Origin: Gemmatimonadales bacterium
GTDB lineage: Bacteria > Gemmatimonadota > Gemmatimonadetes > Gemmatimonadales > GWC2-71-9
Direction: 5' to 3'
DNA length: 50,033 nt
Assembly: GCA_038326215.1 (NCBI GenBank)
Contig: JBBQJU010000001.1
Coordinates: 1-50,033 of the forward strand
Position numbers and translations under genes: made by a program. The notes beneath the pieces were generated by a model. The model had not been told where the DNA came from and did no database searches. It saw only the letters and a list, made by a program, of their open reading frames with translations. Positions 36,272 to 43,630 of the stretch are shown here, one piece after another. The number at the start of each line of letters is the position of its first letter. Within the stretch, counting starts at the first letter, position 1.

Positions 36272-36398
36272 AGGTGGTTGAGAGATAATGCCACTCGGCC
36301 CGACTGGCGACGACTCGACAGGGAACTTTCGGCGTGACCAGACAGTCCCACGTGAGGAAATGCGTCGAGACCCCACGGCAGGCATGCGAGAGCGACCA

Positions 36399-37616
36399 AT
36401 GACCAAGGGCAGGGAAGCGATGAAGTGGACCCCGACCCGAGCGGCAGGGCTGGCACGGTTGCAGGCGTTTCTTCCTTCGGCGGGGTACGCGTACACGCGA
36501 GGTCGCAATGTCGACCGCGGCCCCGAGGATCGGTCGAACGTCTCGGCGCTGTCGCCCTGGATTCGTCGGCGGATGATCACCGAGCACGAGGTAGTTGCCG
36601 CCGTGCTCGCGCAGCATGGACTGGTCGCGGCCGAGAAGTTCATCCAGGAGGTGTACTGGCGGACGTACTGGAAGGGCTGGCTTGAGCTGCGGCCCGGCGT
36701 CTGGCGGCGCTTCGAGGACGATCACGCCGCCTTGTCGGCGTCGTGGCAGGGCAACCGGACGCTCGAGGCGGCGAGACGTGGCGAGACGGGGATCGAGGCG
36801 TTCGATCAATGGACCCACGAGTTGCTCGAGACCGGATGGATGCACAACCACGCACGGATGTGGTACGCATCGATCTGGATCTTCACCTTGCGCCTCCCCT
36901 GGCAGCTGGGGGCGGGCCTCTTCTACGACCACCTGCTCGACGCCGATCCGGCCGCGAACACGCTCTCCTGGCGGTGGGTGGCCGGGCTGCAGACGCGCGG
37001 CAAGCACTATCTCGCGCGCGCCGCCAACATCCGCGACAACACGCTGGGCCGGTTCAACCCCAGCGGCCAGGTGGACGAAGACGCCGACCCGATCGTTGAG
37101 GATGCGGCGCTTCCCGCTCCGACCCCGGCGCCGCGTGGGGAGACACCGAGCACCGGGCGTGTGGCCCTGCTCCTGACCGAGGAGGATCTGCATCCGGAGA
37201 GTTGGCCTATGGAGGCCGCCATCACGGACTGCGCGGCGCTGGCCATGCCGCCACACGGCGCCCCCGAGAGCCCCGCCGCAGCATTCAGCCGGGGTGCCCT
37301 CGCCGATGCGCTTGGGCGCACGAAGGATGCGTTCGGTCCTGAGGGATTACTTCTGTCGCCTGCAGAAATTGCGGACTGGGCCAGCCGCACCGGCGTGACC
37401 GAAGTCGTGACCGGCTTTGCCGCGGTGGGTCCGATCGCCTGCTGCCTCGATGAGGTGGAACACCGCCTGCAGGCGCAGGGCCAGCGGCTGGTCCGGCTGC
37501 AACGGACCTGGGACACCAACGCCTGGCCACACGCCACGGCGGGATTCTTCAAGGTGAAGGAGCAGATTCCCCGGCTGGTCATGGCGGCGATGGCGGCGGA
37601 GCAGCATCGGCGCTGA
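36399..37616 (+). CDS. Photolyase/cryptochrome FAD-binding-domain protein lacking the N-terminal alpha/beta domain, with ~190-aa C-terminal extension
   Basis: ORF 36288..37616(+). The start is ATG 36399 or 36420. NVSALSPWIRRRMIT, QEVYWRTYW, GWMHNHARMWYASIW and YDHLLDADPAANTLSWRWVAGL are photolyase FAD_binding_7 signatures, and they begin within ~15 residues of the N-terminus. Confidence 0.75.
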   Translation: MTKGREAMKWTPTRAAGLARLQAFLPSAGYAYTRGRNVDRGPEDRSNVSALSPWIRRRMITEHEVVAAVLAQHGLVAAEKFIQEVYWRTYWKGWLELRPGVWRRFEDDHAALSASWQGNRTLEAARRGETGIEAFDQWTHELLETGWMHNHARMWYASIWIFTLRLPWQLGAGLFYDHLLDADPAANTLSWRWVAGLQTRGKHYLARAANIRDNTLGRFNPSGQVDEDADPIVEDAALPAPTPAPRGETPSTGRVALLLTEEDLHPESWPMEAAITDCAALAMPPHGAPESPAAAFSRGALADALGRTKDAFGPEGLLLSPAEIADWASRTGVTEVVTGFAAVGPIACCLDEVEHRLQAQGQRLVRLQRTWDTNAWPHATAGFFKVKEQIPRLVMAAMAAEQHRR

Positions 37617-37734
37617 CCGGGCGCTCCGAGCGGATGACGGCCCGCCATCACCGGCCGGCCCCCCTCGATTTGACGATTGGTTGATTTGGTGGGACTATCA
37701 TGAAAGCGTCCCCCCTCGCGGAGTGTCCCCCCGG

Positions 37735-40700
37735 ATGGCCCCCTTCCGACTCAGCTGCCTCGGTCCGCCGATCCTCTATGGCCCGGACGGCGACCCGATC
37801 CGTTTCCGGACCCGGAAGCACTTCGCCCTGCTCCTCTATCTCGCGGTGGAGCCCGGCATCCCGCTCCGCCGGGACCGACTCGCCACCCTGCTCTGGTCCG
37901 GCGCCGACGTCGACGAGGCGCGCCACTCGCTGGCCACCGCCCTCTCCATGATCCGCGGCCGCCTCGGCGCCGAACTGCTGGATACTGACCGCGACACCGT
38001 GCGCCTGATGCCCGGGCGGGTGGTGACCGACCTCCAGAGCCTCGACCACCACGATCCGGAAGAAATCGACGAGGGCCCGCTCGGCCCGTTCCTCGAGGAA
38101 TTCGACATTCCCGATGCGGTCGATTTCCAGCAGTGGAAGGATGGCCAGCACGCCCGGCTCCTCCCCGCGATCCATACCGCGATGGCGTCGCGCATCGAGC
38201 AGAGCCGGCGCCGTGGCGACTCGCGCCGGATGGAAATTCTCGGCCATCGACTCCAGCGCATCGACGAACTCTCCGAAGAGGCGGCACGCGCCGTCCTCGA
38301 AGCCCGGGCGATGGCGGGCGATCGCATTGGCGCCCTGCGCTCCTTCGACCGCTGGCGTGCGCGGCTCGCCGATGAACTCGGTGCGCATCCCTCGGCCCAA
38401 CTCGAACGGATGGCGGAGCGGCTGCGGCGCGGCGGGTGGCAGCGACCCACGATCGCGTTGCTGGCGCCGGTGCCGACCGAGCAGTGGAAGGAACGGAGCT
38501 TTGTCGGTCGTGGCGCCGAGTTCCGGACGTGCTACGATCGCTGGGAGCGCGTGCAGCGCGGCGAACCGCAACATCTGCTGGTCCGCGGCGAGAGTGGCAT
38601 CGGCAAGACGACGCTGGTGGAGCGGCTCACGACCTCGATGGCGCTCGAGGGCGCCAGCGTGGCGCGCGTCCAGTGCTATGAGCTCGAGCGTGAACTCCCG
38701 TTCGGTGTGACGGGCTCGGTGGTGAATCATCTGCTCGATCTGCCGGGCGCCGGGGCGACGCCTCCCGGGCAGTTGGCCGAGCTCGGCCGACTCTCGGCGA
38801 AGGTGCGCCAGCGCTATCCCTCGCTGCCCGCACCGATCGAGACCACCGGCGAGAGCGCACGGATCCTCTACACCGAAGCGGTGATGGCGCTCATCTCGGC
38901 AGTGGCCGAGGAGCATCCGGTCGTCCTCGTGATCGACGACATCCACTTGGCCGATGCAACGTCACTCACCGTGCTGCACCTCATGCTGCGCCGACTGGAG
39001 GCGTTGCCGTTGATGGTGATGCTGACGGCGTCGAGTGCGCCGGAGGCGGAGACGCCGAGCACGCGCCGTTTCCAGGAGAATGCGGTCTCGCTGAATCTGG
39101 CGCCGCTGGTACTCGGGCCGCTGACCGATGGCGAGTCGGCGGAGTTGCTTGAGCATCTCGTCGCCGCGACCGGCGACCCAGGCCCATCCATTCGCCGGGC
39201 GATTCTGGCCGGCGGCCGGGGCAACCCGATGGTGCTGGAACTGCTGGTGGGCGATTGGCGGCGGCGGGGCGATGGTTGCCTGGCGCTCTCGGTCAGCGCG
39301 ATGACGGCGCGGGCCGAGCGGCCGCCGAAGGAGACCTTTCAGCGGCTGGTCGAGGGGACGCTGGCGGCACTCACTGGCGAGGAGCGCTCGGTGGTCGAGC
39401 TCGCGGCGATCCTCGGGCAGCGGCTCAACGATCTCACGATGTACACGATGGTCGACCTGCCGGTGACGCGAACGATGCGCGCGATGGCGTCGCTCACCGG
39501 GCACCGGATCCTCCGCGACGCGGGCAGCCATCTGGAGTTCGCGAACGAGTTCATGCGCGGGCAGTGCTACGTGGGGACGGCGGCCCCGCTCCGGCGGATG
39601 CTGCACGGGCTGGTCGCGGAGCGGCTGTTGCTGGCCGATGGCGGCGACGAGGCGATCCCCGGGCTGGAGATTGCGTGGCATCTGGTGCGGGCGGACCGGT
39701 TGCACGAGGCCATCCCTTTCCTGTTGGCTGGTGGCAAGGAATCAATCCGGCGTGGCGCGCCACATGAGGCCGACCTGGCGCTCTCGACCGGTCTGCCGGC
39801 ACTCACTGGGCAACCGCGGCGCACCGCGATCCTGCTCTTGGCGGAGGCGCAGCAGGAACTGGGGCGGTGGGGCGATTCGCTGCGCCTGCTGGACGAGGCG
39901 GTGGAGCCGTTCTCGGAATCGGAGGAGTGCTGTCGGGAGGTGTTGCGGATTGTAGCGAGAAGGTGGCTGGGATACCTAACGCCGACTTCAATCCCTTTCG
40001 AGACCGACACGCTACTCGGAATTGCCGAGGGCTCGAGCGAGATGGAAGTTCGGGTGAAGGCCATGGCAGCTTGTGTCCGTGTGCTTGGTATCACAAGAGA
40101 ACCGGATCGTATTGCCCGCCTGACCACAATCGCCGCGTCGCTCGCCCCTATGGAAATGGACGGCTTCGAGCGGCTCCATGTGAGTTTCGTAGAGGCATGG
40201 CTCGCAGGGCATCGTCGCGAGATCGAGCACGCGTTGGCCTTGCTCGACGATGCAATTTGCCTTGCAAGTCGACTGAATGTTGCAAGCTCAATCAAGGTGC
40301 GATTGCTTATCGGCAAGGGCAACCTACTCTCAATTTTGGGACGGTATGGGGAAGCAGCAGCCCCGCTCTTTGAGGCGCACATCGGTGCCACCAGACTCGA
40401 CAATCGCACGCTCATAGGGGAATGTGCTGCCCAACTTGCCTTGGTGGAAGGAAGACTAGGACAACATATCGCGCAGGTTGATTGGGCGCGGAAAGCCATC
40501 GCGGCGTTCCCTGTTGGGGAGTGCAGCGCTTCGGTGGTTGGGGCCAACTACGAGCTTGGGCTAGGGCTTGCGAGTCAGGAGCGATTCGGAGAAGCGGCTG
40601 CAAGCGTCCTGGAGCGTAAGAGCCGAGTGACAACCCAAGTCCCGGCTTGGTTGAGGCAAGCCTCACTCCTGAGCGATGCGGATATTCTGGCGTTGGCCGG

Positions 40701-41052
40701 GCATGATCGACGCGCTAAACACCTCGCTAGGCAGGCTACAACAGGCACACTCGCAAATCTTCAAGACAAAGCGCACGCAGGATTGTACGCCCGATGGATC
40801 GCGCTTCTGAATCGAGAGAGCGTTGATCAGTCAGAGCCTGTGAGGTTGGTCGCAGAGTTAGTTGCGGACATCAATTCATTCGACCCGAAGGACCAGGCAG
40901 AGATCCTTGCTGCCCATGCACTCTTAGTCGATTGGGGGGCTGATCAAGCATCGGATCGATGGGGTGCAGTGCGAGAGCAGCTAAAACGGCTCCCAGCAAG
41001 CGTTGAGACGCTAATGCGGCGGCTTGGGACAATGCCGAAGAACGGAGCCTAG
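37735..41052 (+). CDS. SARP/AfsR-like STAND regulator: winged-helix + BTAD + P-loop NTPase + helical-repeat C-terminus (1105 aa)
   Basis: ORF 37681..41052(+), ATG at 37735. N-terminus: FRLSCLGPPILYGPDG...RTRKHFALLLYLAVEPG...RDRLATLLW (OmpR/SARP wHTH). BTAD wording: AVLEARAMAGDRIGALRSFDRWRARLADELGAHPS. Walker A: VRGESGIGKTT. Walker B: VVLVIDDIHLAD. Long alpha-helical C-terminus. Confidence 0.8.
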   Translation: MAPFRLSCLGPPILYGPDGDPIRFRTRKHFALLLYLAVEPGIPLRRDRLATLLWSGADVDEARHSLATALSMIRGRLGAELLDTDRDTVRLMPGRVVTDLQSLDHHDPEEIDEGPLGPFLEEFDIPDAVDFQQWKDGQHARLLPAIHTAMASRIEQSRRRGDSRRMEILGHRLQRIDELSEEAARAVLEARAMAGDRIGALRSFDRWRARLADELGAHPSAQLERMAERLRRGGWQRPTIALLAPVPTEQWKERSFVGRGAEFRTCYDRWERVQRGEPQHLLVRGESGIGKTTLVERLTTSMALEGASVARVQCYELERELPFGVTGSVVNHLLDLPGAGATPPGQLAELGRLSAKVRQRYPSLPAPIETTGESARILYTEAVMALISAVAEEHPVVLVIDDIHLADATSLTVLHLMLRRLEALPLMVMLTASSAPEAETPSTRRFQENAVSLNLAPLVLGPLTDGESAELLEHLVAATGDPGPSIRRAILAGGRGNPMVLELLVGDWRRRGDGCLALSVSAMTARAERPPKETFQRLVEGTLAALTGEERSVVELAAILGQRLNDLTMYTMVDLPVTRTMRAMASLTGHRILRDAGSHLEFANEFMRGQCYVGTAAPLRRMLHGLVAERLLLADGGDEAIPGLEIAWHLVRADRLHEAIPFLLAGGKESIRRGAPHEADLALSTGLPALTGQPRRTAILLLAEAQQELGRWGDSLRLLDEAVEPFSESEECCREVLRIVARRWLGYLTPTSIPFETDTLLGIAEGSSEMEVRVKAMAACVRVLGITREPDRIARLTTIAASLAPMEMDGFERLHVSFVEAWLAGHRREIEHALALLDDAICLASRLNVASSIKVRLLIGKGNLLSILGRYGEAAAPLFEAHIGATRLDNRTLIGECAAQLALVEGRLGQHIAQVDWARKAIAAFPVGECSASVVGANYELGLGLASQERFGEAAASVLERKSRVTTQVPAWLRQASLLSDADILALAGHDRRAKHLARQATTGTLANLQDKAHAGLYARWIALLNRESVDQSEPVRLVAELVADINSFDPKDQAEILAAHALLVDWGADQASDRWGAVREQLKRLPASVETLMRRLGTMPKNGA

Positions 41053-42515
41053 CCCCCGCCCTTCCCTTGGCCCATTTCGCCCCCTCCCGTCCGGTGCGCT
41101 GCCAACCGCGTAGCGCGCGTGCGCACCCTCGGCTTCGCTAGCGCTTCGGGGATAGTAGTCGGATCGGAGATCAGTCGGCGCACAGTTACCGAGTTCACGG
41201 TAAGCTCAACCAATTCGCTGTCGAACTGAGTCCCGCTGCACTTATGAAGCTCCGACACGACCGCCTCTAGACTAAGTGCGTTACGGTAAGGCCGGTTTGT
41301 GGTCATCGCATCAATCGTATCTGCGATTGTGATAATCCGAGCTCCAAGCGGAATCTCACGGGCTGCAATACCGTCAGGGTACCCACGGCCATCCCACCGT
41401 TCGTGGTGGTGCCGAACGCACGAAACGACGTAGCCTTGGAATCTCGAGAAGAGCGACACCAGGTCGGCGCTCCTGGCCGAGTGGGTCTTCATGACTTCCC
41501 ACTCCTCATCCGTAAGCTTCCCTTCCTTCTGAAGGAGGGGAGCGAATTCGGCGTGAATTTTCCCTACGTCATGCAACAATGCCGCGTTTTCGATGTCCTC
41601 AATCTCGTCCAGCGACAGCCCTAGATCGACAGCGATGGCACGGGAAAGACCAGACACACGCCGAGAGTGACCGGAGGTGTATGGGTCACGGGCTTCGATC
41701 GCCTTCACCATCATCGCCAGCTGCTCTCGAACATTCAGTTCAAGCTGCTCGTAGGCGCTATCAAGTTCGCTATATAACCCTTCAACTTCGTTCAACTTGT
41801 TATAGATGTGACGCACACCGATGAGCGGAAGAACGAGCACAAGAAATCCGAATCTCTCAAGCCCACTCCCGGTGTTGCTCTTGACGAACACGAAGGCAAC
41901 GACCAAGGAAAGTAGGCTCGCGGCCATATCATACCCGAGCACCCAGACCGTGTTCGCCCGCCATGTAGACCATAGCGGCCGCTTCGATGCGAGCGCGACG
42001 ACAGTGTTGACCGCGATCGAATTCACAATGAAATAGACCACAGCCGAGGCGAGGTACACCGCGATTTCTCGAAGCGCAAACTCAAAACTGACTGGACCAG
42101 CGGGCGTAGGAGGTGAGAGAAACAATGGCGGATTCTGCCCACCAAGCCAATGGTACACCGAAAATGTTAGTGTGACGCTAAGTACGCGCTCCGATGTATT
42201 GAAGATCGCCTTGATGACGTTCGTTCGCTGATATGCTTGTGAGAGTGCTTTGACAACGCCAGCGGCGAGGCCTCCCCACATGCCCCCAAGAACGAGTCCA
42301 ATCGCAAGGTGGAATACGAACACCAACGACCCACCGACCCCTCCCTGAACACTGCGCGTACCTGATATCTCCAACAGGAAACCGACGAGCACCAATGAAA
42401 ACAGCGCCCACGCGGTGATTGGCGGCGGCCCGAGAGTGCTCGTGTATCCGAGCATCGCGACCGCTGCAATGACCATGAAGGCGATGTAGGTGCTAACCGA
42501 CCGATTGAAAGACAT
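41049..42515 (-). CDS. Membrane-anchored HD-GYP domain c-di-GMP phosphodiesterase
   Basis: ORF 41049..42515(-), ATG start. About 230-aa multi-pass membrane N-terminus, then HD-GYP: GHSRRV, LLHDVGKI, HHERWDGRGYPDG, DTIDAMT. Its stop codon overlaps the convergent regulator stop (CTAG at 41049-41052). Confidence 0.9.
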   Translation of the reverse strand: MSFNRSVSTYIAFMVIAAVAMLGYTSTLGPPPITAWALFSLVLVGFLLEISGTRSVQGGVGGSLVFVFHLAIGLVLGGMWGGLAAGVVKALSQAYQRTNVIKAIFNTSERVLSVTLTFSVYHWLGGQNPPLFLSPPTPAGPVSFEFALREIAVYLASAVVYFIVNSIAVNTVVALASKRPLWSTWRANTVWVLGYDMAASLLSLVVAFVFVKSNTGSGLERFGFLVLVLPLIGVRHIYNKLNEVEGLYSELDSAYEQLELNVREQLAMMVKAIEARDPYTSGHSRRVSGLSRAIAVDLGLSLDEIEDIENAALLHDVGKIHAEFAPLLQKEGKLTDEEWEVMKTHSARSADLVSLFSRFQGYVVSCVRHHHERWDGRGYPDGIAAREIPLGARIITIADTIDAMTTNRPYRNALSLEAVVSELHKCSGTQFDSELVELTVNSVTVRRLISDPTTIPEALAKPRVRTRATRLAAHRTGGGEMGQGKGGG

Positions 42516-42796
42516 AAGACAAGGAAAGAAGAACCGTTAGTTACCGATTTAGACCCAGGTTTGCGTCTCCGCGAGGAAAATACTCGCGATGAAGTCGACG
42601 GCCGCAGCCAACCACTCCAGCATATGCGTCACCTCCTCTCCGGTCAATCAGTTACTTCTGGAGGTGGCAGACCCCGCTATGGTCCACCAGACGCTTCGCT
42701 TTGTCGACCGCTCGGCTCCGCTCTTGGTATCGGATCCCTATCGATTCTTCTCCCCGTACTCCTTCTGGTGCGCCCTGGTGCACCGGTTACTGGTTA

Positions 42797-42821
42797 CTGG
42801 TCACGGCTTCCGTGTGACCAG
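42797..42821 (-). terminator. Stem-loop 21 nt downstream of the 42842 gene
   Basis: ctggtcac / ggcttccgt / gtgaccag is an 8-bp perfect stem. No clear U-tract follows on the minus strand (followed by UAACCAGUAACC). Confidence 0.4.
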
Positions 42822-42841
42822 GCATTTCCAACAGTTCTGCG

Positions 42842-43603
42842 CTACCGTCCCCGCCGCGTCCCGAACCACCGGTTCGTCGCGTCGAGGACCGCATACACTG
42901 CCGCGTGCTCGGCACTCTCAATCACTTCGGCGGTCCCCACGAGCAACTTCGCTTCGCGTCCGCCCACCGTGTGCACGCCCACCATCACATAGGTCCGGCC
43001 GAAGGCGTCCTGAATCGTCGCCCCCTCCAGTACCAGCGAATACTTGTCCGCCAGCCGTTCCAGCACCGCGACCGCGGCACGCGCCGCCGTCTCGACCTTG
43101 TTCCGCGCGGTGTCCGGTCCTTCCTCGGTGGCCGACTCGAGCCGACCCTCGCAGGAGAGTGTCACTGTCGCCGAGACTTTCCGCTTCCCCGACGCCTGGG
43201 CCATCACCAGGTCATCGAACAACACCATCCGCTTCACCAAGCCGTCCTGCGCCGGCACAGCCACCATCGTCGGCTGCGACGCATCGATCGGGCGGACATC
43301 GGCGGTCTGCGCGACCGAGATCTTCCGGTGATCAACCCGCAACCCGAGGTGGGCCAGCAACGCCGACTCGACGTTCCGGACCACCTGCTTCGGGGCCTGC
43401 CCCGCCTGTGCCAGGATGTGGATCTCGCTCACCTCGCCGAGCGGCGTCGTCACCACGCGCGCGGAGAGGACGCCCTCGAGCGACGTCAGGAGATTCTCGG
43501 CCCGGCGCACGCCCCAGGGATCGGTCGCCGGATCGATCGGCGAGCCACCCGGCCGGGAAGCCGAAGCATCGAAGAACTGCGAGGGTGAAGCGGTCACGGG
43601 CAT
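42842..43603 (-). CDS. Hypothetical two-domain protein (unknown function), co-oriented 27 nt downstream of the diguanylate cyclase
   Basis: ORF 42842..43627(-). The track start is TTG; the first ATG is at 43603 (MPVTASPSQ...). Third-position GC is 19/20 in 43081-43140 for this frame, which is strongly coding. I recognise no family. Confidence 0.65.
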   Translation of the reverse strand: MPVTASPSQFFDASASRPGGSPIDPATDPWGVRRAENLLTSLEGVLSARVVTTPLGEVSEIHILAQAGQAPKQVVRNVESALLAHLGLRVDHRKISVAQTADVRPIDASQPTMVAVPAQDGLVKRMVLFDDLVMAQASGKRKVSATVTLSCEGRLESATEEGPDTARNKVETAARAAVAVLERLADKYSLVLEGATIQDAFGRTYVMVGVHTVGGREAKLLVGTAEVIESAEHAAVYAVLDATNRWFGTRRGR

Positions 43604-43630
43604 GCCTCGTGGTGAACGGTCGTGCAAACG

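Follow-up and report, generated by a model that had tools for sequence, protein, structure and literature searches.

Hypervariable loci with a composition below that of the host genome are familiar from the O-antigen rfb clusters and other surface-polysaccharide loci, whose low GC is usually explained by import from low-GC donors. Among signalling loci, agr of Staphylococcus aureus is variable in the 3' end of agrB, in agrD and in the sensor part of agrC. Similarly, the comQXP polymorphism of Bacillus subtilis involves comQ, comX and the 5' sensor part of comP (PMC6334282). [quoted passage not shown] Here we analyze a 50,033-nt stretch of Gemmatimonadales DNA (the window) containing a low-GC patch, which is probably an old, long-lived hypervariable allelic cassette of stationary low GC, exchanged by homologous recombination within a core signalling locus of the genus. 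The cassette would comprise two specificity modules lying side by side: the TPR-like sensor at the C-terminus of an AfsR-like regulator and a convergently transcribed membrane HD-GYP phosphodiesterase.

Composition of the patch

A first-pass annotation of the window had described a low-GC patch of ~3 kb at 39,900-42,850, with its left boundary inside the ORF of a STAND regulator. Both observations hold. In 300-nt windows, GC is 0.65-0.73 up to 39,850, 0.54-0.63 over 39,850-42,850, and 0.63-0.70 thereafter. Among 1,229 3-kb windows across the source MAG (2.56 Mb in 320 contigs, 73% complete; mean GC 0.677, sd 0.017), the patch is the lowest of all at 0.594, and it contains five of the twelve lowest 1-kb windows. 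The left edge proved to be sharper than described and ~45 nt further right, directly 3' of an invariant block, CGGGAGGTGTTG (39934-39945); GC over 39,946-42,850 is ~0.56, versus ~0.70 before the patch.

GC3 is not uniform over the regulator ORF, a point that the annotation had left to a proper count, and falls from 0.85 to 0.58 at codon ~755. In the open frame (37681-41052) it is 0.77-0.97 for codons 1-750 and 0.53-0.65 for codons 751-1123, and GC1 likewise falls from ~0.75 to 0.67. The step between adjacent 250-codon halves, 0.27, ranks fifth among 399 long ORFs. The four bigger steps lie at the 5' limit of crude longest-ORF calls and resemble start mis-calls. Immediately before the junction GC3 reaches 0.95-0.97, the top 1% of the genome, and immediately after it the bottom 1%; a GC3 peak in this position fits a recombining arm adjoining a non-recombining core. 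The HD-GYP gene has GC3 of 0.65, at about the 1st percentile of genes (median 0.84).

The annotation had also assigned the HD-GYP gene and its leader to the patch. Both are indeed low in GC, but hypervariability does not extend through the leader: it ends at the HD-GYP start codon (42515), and the low-GC remainder, 42516-42850, is conserved leader except for a variable spacer within it (42735-42841).

The regulator, the HD-GYP gene and the leader

The regulator gene (37735-41052, plus strand) encodes 1105 amino acids from the ATG at 37735 in the database gene call (P0003), in a frame open from 37681. Its product was assigned to the AfsR-like STAND transcription regulators by Pfam (AAA_16, 8e-24; BTAD, 2e-9; Trans_reg_C at 2e-4, under its cut-off), by a PDB profile search with the regulator family, which matched the TPR region of AfsR (8k60, E 1.6e-8) and EmbR, and by an AF2 model (pLDDT 83.6) with the STAND-TPR protein 6mfv as top Foldseek match. 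The domain layout is SARP wHTH and BTAD, P-loop NOD, helical arm, and TPR-like solenoid.

By GC3, DNA identity and phylogeny the gene divides in two. The high-GC part, 37735-39945 (plus strand), ending in the invariant block, has an overall GC3 of 0.85 and 83-93% DNA identity to the nearest species, and its tree agrees with the relationships of the flanking genes; it would act as the left homology arm in cassette exchange. In a codon-level alignment of 12 loci the alleles diverge at codons ~756-763 (39946-39970, plus strand), the candidate crossover zone. The AF2 model places this zone at the end of a helix (helix 728-745 in P0003 numbering) and the next loop, between two TPR-like helical pairs, so that the crossover site is predicted to be structurally tolerant, a loop between helical repeats. 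From 39946 to 41052 (plus strand) follow the ~367 codons of the TPR-like sensor module, with GC3 of 0.58, delimited by GC3, identity, clustering and AU tests. Its identity to same-clade orthologues is 37-75%, versus 92-94% for the N-terminus, and the sensor modules of 102 proteins fall into 70 clusters at 60% identity.

The second gene (41049-42515, minus strand) is convergent with the regulator, their stop codons overlapping in CTAG, and encodes a 488-aa membrane HD-GYP phosphodiesterase, recognized by Pfam (HD_5, 7.6e-33), by the motifs HDVGK and HHERWDGRGYP in the translation, and by PDB matches to V-cGAP3 (5z7c, 1.6e-36) and PmGH (4mcw). A hypervariable multi-pass N-terminal domain precedes the conserved HD-GYP domain: between allele classes the transmembrane part is 47-70% identical and the HD part 72-84%.

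Upstream of the HD-GYP gene lies a conserved 24-codon small ORF, MLEWLAAAVDFIASIFLAETQTWV (42549-42623, minus strand), preceded by an invariant Shine-Dalgarno sequence (42630-42636). It is present, with synonymous changes, in all 20 loci searched, and its final four residues co-vary with the HD-GYP allele. A conserved structured leader RNA (42610-42721, minus strand) is predicted by the RNAalifold consensus, in which a hairpin (42688-42681 paired with 42673-42666) contains three covarying pairs and an anti-SD (42664-42660) pairs with the SD of the small ORF (42636-42632). The predicted pairs are formed in 96.8% of cells, versus 32-51% in slid controls, and a search against Rfam returned no family match. 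From the leader to the stop of the upstream gene extends the variable spacer (42735-42841, minus strand), marked by a drop of identity to 0.29-0.76, by indels, and by a tandem repeat of the heptamer GGTTACT (42785-42801, detected by TRF). Judged by eye, the spacer of one orthologous locus (L011) has several further imperfect copies of this heptamer. The high-GC syntenic right flank opens with a conserved gene of unknown family (42842-43627, minus strand; ORF call of 261 aa), without a Pfam or PADLOC match; it has GC3 of 0.85 and identities of 65-94% across all 12 genus loci. Together with the leader, it would form the right homology arm.

Synteny and the coinciding edges

The gene pair was found in all 23 loci fetched, in the genus and in more distant relatives; most of the sequences are metagenome assemblies. 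In the 12 genus genomes it is syntenic with five right-flank genes, and the locus occurs in all genomes in which a copy was assembled, both genes being full-length orthologues everywhere. A low-GC block with a common right edge occurs in all 15 loci profiled for composition, and the left edge is common to ten of them; for the genus loci the counts are 12 of 12 and 9 of 12. A distant-clade locus (L113) has the same step, from GC3 of 0.95-0.98 to 0.5-0.7. In loci L021, L022, L024 and L112, hyperdivergence and low GC extend into the N-terminal part of the regulator as well. The left GC edge shifts between lineages together with the divergence edge, and across lineages low GC tracks the extent of divergence.

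At the nucleotide level the composition edge coincides with the similarity edge. The window is 83-95% identical to the three nearest species in the flanks and 45-75% in the block. Loci L103 and L104 share 100% identity over nearly all of the first 3.2 kb, nearly all of the high-GC regulator part included, and then only 42-50%; two contigs of the same species, L012 and L110, are 96-100% identical in the flanks and 40-78% in the block. Even when alleles of one class are compared, divergence in the block is still about double that in the flanks. Three genomes have broken copies, which may be pseudogenes or long-read errors.

Allele exchange

The decoupling of the two regulator parts was analyzed in 102 full-length orthologues. 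Two pairs have N-termini identical over 700 residues (100%) yet C-termini of 33-34% identity, and four proteins whose N-termini are linked at >=95%, that is, at least 95%, carry three C-terminal classes. The regulator of the window is 94% identical to P0004 in the N-terminus and 37% in the C-terminus, versus 72% and 50% for P0013, so its C-terminus is nearer to P0013. Set against the N-terminal part, the alleles of the C-terminal TPR sensor are polyphyletic, and the C-terminal data reject all six N-defined clades (AU p from 3e-61 to 5e-5). Alleles are replaced at the strain level, and the trees are incongruent. The cassette of L012 clusters with those of L015 and L022, apart from its sister species, and allele classes appear to cross species boundaries. 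No pair was found with a C-terminus much more alike than its N-terminus (the maximum excess is 3 points among the 102 orthologues and 9 in another comparison), hence recent cross-species cassette transfers were not caught directly.

STAND-C and HD-GYP alleles occur in differing combinations, which indicates partly independent assortment, and the sensor module and the HD-GYP gene are not an obligate unit. The sequence comparisons support exchange of the regulator sensor by recombination, usually along with the HD-GYP gene. Of the earlier proposal that the two had been swapped in together, the swap survives, given the incongruent trees and the in-ORF crossover at the GC break; the obligate pairing does not. 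The comparison with relatives that it had called for was likewise divided, synteny being congruent and the N- and C-terminal phylogenies incongruent.

We propose that many deeply diverged alleles circulate and that strains swap them by homologous recombination, with crossovers in conserved DNA, namely the ~25-nt zone after the invariant block in the regulator ORF and the leader and small ORF upstream of the HD-GYP gene, and sometimes between the two modules. The regulator would keep its one DNA-binding and NTPase chassis while the sensor is replaced. The depth of the alleles and their co-occurrence suggest that balancing or diversifying selection keeps them, and signal specificity may be the selected trait.

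Origin of the low GC

Identity at four-fold sites between alleles has a median of 0.26 in STAND-C and is 0.31 in HD-GYP, versus 0.26 expected at random. GC over 17 alleles is nearly constant (0.59 +/- 0.02 in STAND-C and 0.569 +/- 0.015 in HD-GYP), and in lineages sharing the codon-750 step GC4 is 0.5-0.7 in the block versus 0.85-0.96 in the N-terminal part. With synonymous sites saturated and alleles at constant GC, the low GC is stationary and not residual donor composition. The most probable cause is that divergent alleles escape GC-biased gene conversion. Alleles too diverged to recombine together would be shielded from this GC-raising force, or from selection coupled to recombination; AT-biased mutation would then fix their composition, and the recombining flanks would be pushed to very high GC3.

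Two observations complicate this explanation. The conserved HD domain (72-84% amino acid identity between classes) matches the most variable parts in its low GC3, so that inside the block the GC deficit is not proportional to local divergence. In the conserved leader GC is 0.56, versus 0.67 for other intergenic DNA in the window, a hint of some regional cause distinct from allele divergence. Both are AT-rich like the variable parts, as expected if selection on the DNA or RNA itself keeps GC low, hypervariability then being a separate matter. Such selection could act as rare-codon throttling of two low-abundance signalling proteins, through an AT-preferring nucleoid or silencing protein, or through effects of terminator-less convergent transcription. 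The block GC of 0.57-0.59, versus 0.67 in other intergenic DNA, and the shared stop codons, which leave no room for terminators, point in the same direction. We consider this explanation unlikely. The mid-ORF left edge moves with the divergence edge, which would not be expected if expression of whole genes were the target, overlapping stop codons are not shared by all alleles, and GC1 and GC2 shift too, as expected of mutation pressure rather than codon choice. In addition, we know of no silencing protein in this phylum.

The uniformly low GC of the regulator and the HD-GYP gene in L112, L022 and L021, and of most of this region in L024, could represent the ancestral state of a single low-GC cassette that was imported into the ancestor of the genus and is still ameliorating. 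That the low GC is such a relic seems quite improbable. Four-fold sites are saturated between alleles with the same GC in each, whereas after so much turnover a relic should have reached the genomic GC4 of ~0.9, as the adjacent N-terminal part did, and homologues outside the family were not found.

Source and mobility

The C-terminus alone and the membrane part of HD-GYP alone were compared with 5.8 billion proteins, and only this Gemmatimonadales family matched. No integrase or transposase domains were detected in 12 proteins scanned (STAND, HD-GYP and ten neighbouring ORFs), and a search for flanking repeats of the patch found none, which bears out the earlier statement that mobility genes and repeats are lacking. 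The accompanying suggestion of horizontal transfer or a chimera at an insertion junction fared worse, the block being syntenic across the genus and beyond. A one-off event, in which a foreign low-GC fragment with the sensor and HD-GYP recombined into a resident regulator, would account for the abrupt compositional break in an intact ORF and for the incongruent N- and C-terminal phylogenies. We regard it as highly improbable given the common right edge in 15 of 15 loci, the pair in 23 of 23, full-length orthologues of both genes everywhere, and no donor lineage outside the family, mobility genes or repeats.

Divergence in place, by local hypermutation or by relaxed constraint with AT-biased mutation and without allele exchange, agrees with the twofold divergence of the block within an allele class and the disrupted copies in three genomes. 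It can be given very little credence when contigs nearly substitution-free over 3.2 kb of flank differ by >50% in the block, when allele classes are common to several species and reject the species tree, and when the HD-GYP catalytic domain and the TPR module fold are preserved; no reverse transcriptase or other diversifier was found among ten neighbouring proteins scanned. Finally, a MAG contig fusing two organisms, conceivable in a 73% complete genome of 320 contigs, can practically be dismissed, as the same structure recurs in 23 loci from independent assemblies, some of them single-contig or few-contig genomes, with ORFs intact across both edges.

Comparison with known systems

As a proposed exchanged allelic cassette, the locus recalls the comQXP and agr pherotype loci. 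In all three a few-kb hypervariable segment lies inside a conserved signalling locus with one border in the receptor gene, the sensor domain being swapped and the output domain kept, and several deeply diverged alleles per species have trees incongruent with the strain trees. Unlike these systems, the variable segment here has no recognizable gene for signal synthesis or a signal precursor, and the nearby 24-aa small ORF is conserved save the final four residues. A cytoplasmic SARP-STAND-TPR transcription factor takes the place of the membrane histidine kinase as receptor, and the second variable gene encodes a c-di-GMP-type phosphodiesterase. The locus belongs to a high-GC member of Gemmatimonadales, the segment has a large stationary GC deficit, and the specificity groups are putative.

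With the rfb-type loci the locus shares many deeply diverged alleles at a fixed site between conserved flanks, exchange by homologous recombination in these flanks, and GC well under that of the genome. It differs in that its alleles are variants of one homologous gene pair, not different gene sets, one border lies in an ORF, an outside donor was not found, and synonymous saturation indicates that low GC is maintained in place. In the NLR/STAND immune receptors (bacterial Avs, fungal and plant NLRs), as here, variability is concentrated in the C-terminal repeat sensor and is far lower in the NTPase and effector, and allele lineages are older than species. The effector here is a transcription-activation domain, the regulator locus had no PADLOC match to Avs or another defence family, and the gene occupies a fixed core position in every genus genome with an assembled copy, not a variable defence island.

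AfsR and other large SARP-NOD-TPR regulators have the same order of SARP, P-loop NOD and C-terminal TPR domains. The match to AfsR, the best one, is weak and limited to the TPR region, AfsR belongs to another phylum, and neither a kinase partner nor an antibiotic cluster is nearby. To our knowledge, no allelic series of sensor domains has been reported for regulators of the AfsR type. The autoinhibition of AfsR offers a possible model of how an unchanged output could be retuned by swapping the sensor.

Composition of the low-GC patch

The sliding GC content falls from 0.65-0.73 to 0.54-0.63 between ~39,850 and 42,850 and then recovers. The MAG containing the window has 2.56 Mb in 320 contigs and is 73% complete, the window being its entire 50,033-bp contig C1; the patch ranks lowest of 1,229 3-kb windows genome-wide, ~5 sd under the mean. 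The patch reported in the first-pass annotation is thus confirmed as real and far beyond chance. So is the compositional break inside an intact STAND open reading frame: in the regulator ORF (37681-41052, plus strand; the database gene call starts from ATG 37735) GC3 is not uniform, with 0.77-0.97 through codon 750 and 0.53-0.65 beyond, and GC1 is also lower after codon 750. GC3 is 0.65 in the HD-GYP gene, which is convergent (41049-42515, minus strand), the median gene GC3 in the MAG being 0.84.

The within-ORF GC3 step of the regulator is among the top five of 399 long ORFs, in a crude ORF set where the larger steps look like start-codon mis-calls. Among 120-codon windows, GC3 directly before the junction (0.95-0.97) belongs to the top 1%, and GC3 directly after it to the bottom 1%. 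Five other low-GC patches in the MAG (on C44, C161, C13, C124, and C84) are shorter and milder, and are uninformative on the cause of the low GC.

Domain architecture of the regulator and the HD-GYP protein

The BTAD domain of the regulator scores above the cut-off (2.2e-9) and Trans_reg_C below it (2e-4), AAA_16 is matched at 8.3e-24, and the Walker A motif (P-loop) GESGIGKT can be read from the translation. A single-sequence PDB search with the regulator gave no match, and a profile was needed; when built from 38 orthologues, it matched the TPR region of Streptomyces AfsR (8k60, E 1.6e-8), the TPRs of Rap/NprR, and residues 15-89 of EmbR. The AlphaFold model (AF2, pLDDT 83.6) consists of a strand/helix wHTH at the N-terminus, a helical BTAD, a NOD, a helical arm, and a long TPR-like solenoid of ~26 helices (pLDDT 90-97), and its top Foldseek match is the STAND-TPR protein 6mfv, with Apaf-1 and ORC also found. 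The regulator combines a SARP module (OmpR-type winged helix plus BTAD), a P-loop NOD, and a C-terminal TPR region, and is accordingly predicted to be an AfsR-type SARP-NOD-TPR protein. No convincing repeat operator was identified for it, direct-repeat promoters being typical of the AfsR type.

In the HD-GYP protein, a multi-pass membrane domain is joined to a canonical HD-GYP domain (HD_5, 7.6e-33), whose motifs HDVGK and HHERWDGRGYP conform to the HD / HHExxDGxGYP signature. Its nearest solved structures are V-cGAP3 (5z7c), a cGAMP-specific enzyme, and then PmGH (4mcw), a c-di-GMP enzyme. It is a predicted cyclic-dinucleotide phosphodiesterase, which may act on c-di-GMP or 3'3'-cGAMP. The right flank continues on the same strand with a conserved gene of unknown family, an Fe-S/GGDEF cyclase, a sigma-54 activator, MoCF, and GcvT. 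In the window the convergent stop codons of the two genes overlap (CTAG, 41049-41052); such an overlap occurs in 4/10 intact loci, with gaps of 2-41 nt in the remaining 6/10, and is not a conserved feature. A mutational signature of a single transcription unit is unsupported, as the strand skews reverse where the two genes meet and track the coding strand of each.

Conservation of the block in related genomes

The regulator has full-length orthologues, 37-86% identical, in other genomes of the genus, where it also stands beside the convergent HD-GYP gene with the right-flank gene content unchanged; synteny does not extend to the left of the regulator. All 23 related loci that were fetched contain the gene pair. 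In 12 loci aligned on the regulator start, the low-GC block ends ~5.1 kb downstream in every case (12/12), and in 9/12 it starts, as in the window, ~2.1-2.4 kb into the regulator. The entire regulator is low-GC in L017, L021, and L022. Three loci of further clades show the same behaviour: in L113 GC3 is 0.95-0.98 up to codon 700-750 and 0.5-0.7 after it, L112 has low GC across both genes, and in L024 the HD-GYP gene is low-GC together with all of the regulator except its first ~180 codons. Where the block begins on the left thus differs between lineages, since the whole regulator is both low-GC and hyperdivergent in L112, L022, and L021. With L024, these loci represent a second locus state, in which the low-GC hyperdivergent block takes in the regulator (in L024 minus the initial codons) and the HD-GYP gene.

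Because the block recurs across the genus and further clades, it can be neither an event confined to this MAG nor an artefact of assembly. The one-off horizontal transfer or insertion-junction chimera put forward in the first-pass annotation is likewise contradicted, the gene pair and the block being common to related loci.

In three loci (L013, L018, and L019 of genomes G009, G013, and G019) the sensor module and/or the HD-GYP gene is broken by stops, deletions, or frameshifts with the flanks intact; these are either pseudogenes or long-read indel errors. On the left, synteny stops at the regulator start codon (the window counterpart region is ~36300-37700). Upstream of it related strains carry varied toxin-antitoxin modules (HicAB-like, PemK/MazE, and HipA in the L103-L108 regions), and four of them a 48-aa DUF5670 gene; an insertion hot spot adjoining the locus on this side is suggested.

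Borders of the variable segment

The GC border coincides with a border of sequence similarity. Comparison of the window with the three nearest species revealed 83-95% identity in the N-terminal part of the regulator and the right flank, and 45-75% inside the block; the same contrast was seen at 100-nt resolution among seven loci of the window's clade. The decisive evidence comes from two pairs of loci, recovered from activated-sludge and freshwater samples. Loci L103 and L104, single-run assemblies with neighbouring run accessions, are 100% identical over nearly all of the first 3.2 kb, and then only 42-50% in the sensor module and 50-78% in the HD-GYP gene. Similarly, for L012 and L110 identity is 96-100% on either side and drops to 40-78% from offset ~2,200 to ~4,900.

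In the codon-level alignment, an invariant block common to all alleles, CGGGAGGTGTTG (39934-39945), is followed by a divergence zone of ~8 codons (39946-39970). In the model this crossover site falls at a helix end and in the loop after it, where one helical pair of the solenoid gives way to the next, so that chimeras formed here should, judging from the modelled fold, be tolerated. On the right, the variable block ends at the HD-GYP start codon, beyond which a small ORF (sORF) and leader are conserved. As in pherotype loci, the hypervariable segment is bordered inside the receptor gene and spares the output domain.

Genealogy and source of the alleles

Using the N-terminal 720 residues as query, we recovered 102 full-length orthologues of the regulator. 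Among them, N-terminal parts (N) that are 100% identical occur with sensor modules (C) of 33-34% identity in two pairs, and of 62% in another case; the window's regulator has N 94% and C 37% in comparison with the orthologue P0004, and N 93% and C 75% with P0007. The separate phylogenies of the two parts are incongruent: with the C-terminal alignment, AU tests reject every one of the six well-supported N-terminal clades (p 3e-61 to 5e-5). The N-terminal clade of the window divides into three C-terminal allele classes, and ~70 C-terminal clusters are formed at 60% identity. Allele classes extend across species: the L012 cassette (sensor module and HD-GYP gene) clusters with those of L015 and L022 and not with the sister species, and the sister species represented by L014 and L016 share 88% identity in the N-terminus and only 37% in the C-terminus. 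Again as in pherotype loci, there are several diverged alleles per species, and the allele tree is incongruent with the strain tree. What stands of the sensor replacement suggested in the first-pass annotation is therefore a recombinational swap of modules, and not a single transfer or insertion chimera.

The sensor module and the membrane part of the HD-GYP protein (TM) are linked (partial Mantel r(C, TM given N) = 0.50, p = 2e-4). Despite this linkage clear recombinants between the modules exist, L107/L109 with C 38% and TM 94% and L012/L109 with C 70% and TM 53%, and an obligate co-evolution of the two was rejected.

When 5.8 billion proteins were searched with only the C-terminal module, 22 matched, nearly all of them full-length members of the same family, with the named ones all from Gemmatimonadales. 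The membrane part of the HD-GYP protein, used by itself, matched 81 proteins similar in length (97, 97, 88%, then <=66%), every source-named one from Gemmatimonadales. Integrase or transposase domains are absent from the 12 proteins scanned (the regulator, the HD-GYP protein, and ten neighbouring ORFs), and only short chance matches were found as flanking or bracketing repeats, which upholds the earlier remark that neither is visible. Judged by integrase/transposase domains in these proteins, flanking repeats, and presence/absence among relatives, the locus is not a mobile island. Since the module searches return the own family and neither mobility genes nor repeats were found, the cassette alleles form a lineage-internal pool and are not imports from low-GC donors.

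Maintenance of the low GC content

Four-fold-site identity was compared with that expected for unrelated sequences of the same composition. The median over all pairs at conserved codons of the sensor module was 0.26, with 0.26 expected, and in the HD-GYP gene 0.31, with 0.26 expected; between the window and its nearest species the sensor module gave 0.28, with 0.25 expected, so even the nearest species pair is near synonymous saturation. Nevertheless, GC4 is 0.5-0.7 in every allele of the block versus 0.85-0.96 N-terminally in those lineages that share the step, and total GC across 17 alleles is 0.59 +/- 0.02 in the sensor module and 0.569 +/- 0.015 in the HD-GYP gene. A relic of past import would have ameliorated after complete synonymous turnover, hence the block has its own equilibrium composition, and its low GC is stationary and not that of a fading import.

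Hyperdivergent stretches of the locus are always low-GC, and the border shifts with the extent of divergence between lineages. A probable mechanism is that the conserved arms undergo frequent homologous exchange with GC-biased conversion, whereas alleles diverged by 40-60% would be unable to convert one another and would drift to an AT-biased mutational equilibrium. The GC peak before the junction and the trough after it form the pattern expected if the arms convert and the diverged alleles do not, and in bacteria at large more recombination has been reported to go with higher GC (PMC4450053). A live alternative is a regional DNA- or RNA-level constraint keeping the block AT-rich. In its favour, the AT-richness of the conserved HD domain and of the conserved leader matches that of the variable parts, and the remaining intergenic DNA of the window has a higher GC (0.67) than the block. 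If biased conversion is the cause, the locus may be a natural demonstration within one ORF that GC-biased conversion alone holds GC4 at 0.9 beside non-recombining DNA equilibrating at 0.6.

Small ORF and structured leader upstream of the HD-GYP gene

The 326-nt interval upstream of the HD-GYP gene contains two conserved features, both on the minus strand. The first is the sORF of 24 codons, MLEWLAAAVDFIASIFLAETQTWV (42549-42623), with an invariant Shine-Dalgarno sequence at 42630-42636. It is very likely translated, being kept with synonymous changes in 20/20 loci searched; its last four residues (QTWV, VTWI, VSWT, or VSWG) follow the downstream HD-GYP allele. The second is a structured leader RNA (42610-42721) with an 8-bp hairpin and an anti-SD (CCTCC) pairing with the Shine-Dalgarno sequence of the sORF; 96.8% of cells are paired, compared to 32-51% in slid controls, and three pairs in the hairpin covary. 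A known riboswitch, e.g. of the c-di-GMP class, was rejected, as the Rfam scan of 39500-43300 gave nothing above noise. The leader is a possible translational switch upstream of the putative phosphodiesterase.

An informal check by eye, prompted by the upstream gene for a sigma-54 activator, revealed no sigma-54 promoter (GG-N10-GC in canonical context) in the leader. A heptamer tandem repeat, GGTTACT x2.4, at 42785-42801 is located in the only poorly conserved part of the interval; several more imperfect copies are seen by eye in the equivalent spacer of the nearest species (L011). This repeat could vary promoter spacing.

Functional implications and comparison with known systems

In AfsR, the SARP module is held inactive by the NOD and TPR parts until ATP binding frees it (PMC10936776). 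Given this restraint, a sensor swap should retune what releases the regulator: with the TPR solenoid mostly replaced and the chassis kept, the releasing signal would change and the regulon would not. The locus is of interest for sensor exchange in STAND regulators, as the DNA-binding and NTPase chassis of the AfsR type is constant and the sensor is exchanged among strains beside an equally polymorphic membrane HD-GYP protein. This points to strain-level differences in what a Gemmatimonadales c-di-GMP circuit senses, and the natural chimeras could be used for mapping sensor specificity.

For annotation, a sharp GC/GC3 break within an intact gene is usually taken as recent foreign DNA, whereas here it appears to mark a resident ancient allelic cassette. 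Composition-based calls of horizontal transfer would err at this locus, and protein clustering with a 90% identity threshold would break this single orthologue up into dozens of 'families'. Adjacent segments of one frame hold GC4 of ~0.9 and ~0.6 through full synonymous turnover, and their border coincides with a recombination border; with population data, the locus would be a test case for whether high bacterial GC comes from recombination-linked biased conversion or from selection.

It is conceivable, though we think it rather unlikely, that the locus is a strain-specificity system, in which the swappable TPR sensor of an NLR-like transcription factor and the swappable HD-GYP membrane domain recognise polymorphic ligands and persist as an allelic series under negative frequency-dependent selection, with recognition coupled to c-di-GMP/cGAMP turnover and transcription. 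The candidate ligands would then be kin signals, competitor molecules, or phage proteins, and the locus would be a new molecular form of the polymorphism known from pherotypes or immune receptors, in a phylum that has received little study.

PADLOC assigned no defence family: the regulator's sole match was to a P-loop at 17 bits (mad8), and the HD-GYP protein drew generic matches to Cas3/Cas10 HD domains. Membership in Avs-like or other catalogued defence systems was rejected on this result. Evolutionarily, the closest kind of analogue is the comQXP pherotype locus, where the sensor part of the receptor gene is polymorphic along with the adjacent genes (PMC6334282). However, pherotype loci (comQXP, agr) encode a co-varying signal gene; here no signal precursor or synthase was found inside the variable segment, which holds only the sensor module and the HD-GYP gene, so the locus was not classified as a pherotype system, and the adjacent sORF is conserved except for the allele-tracking residues at its end.
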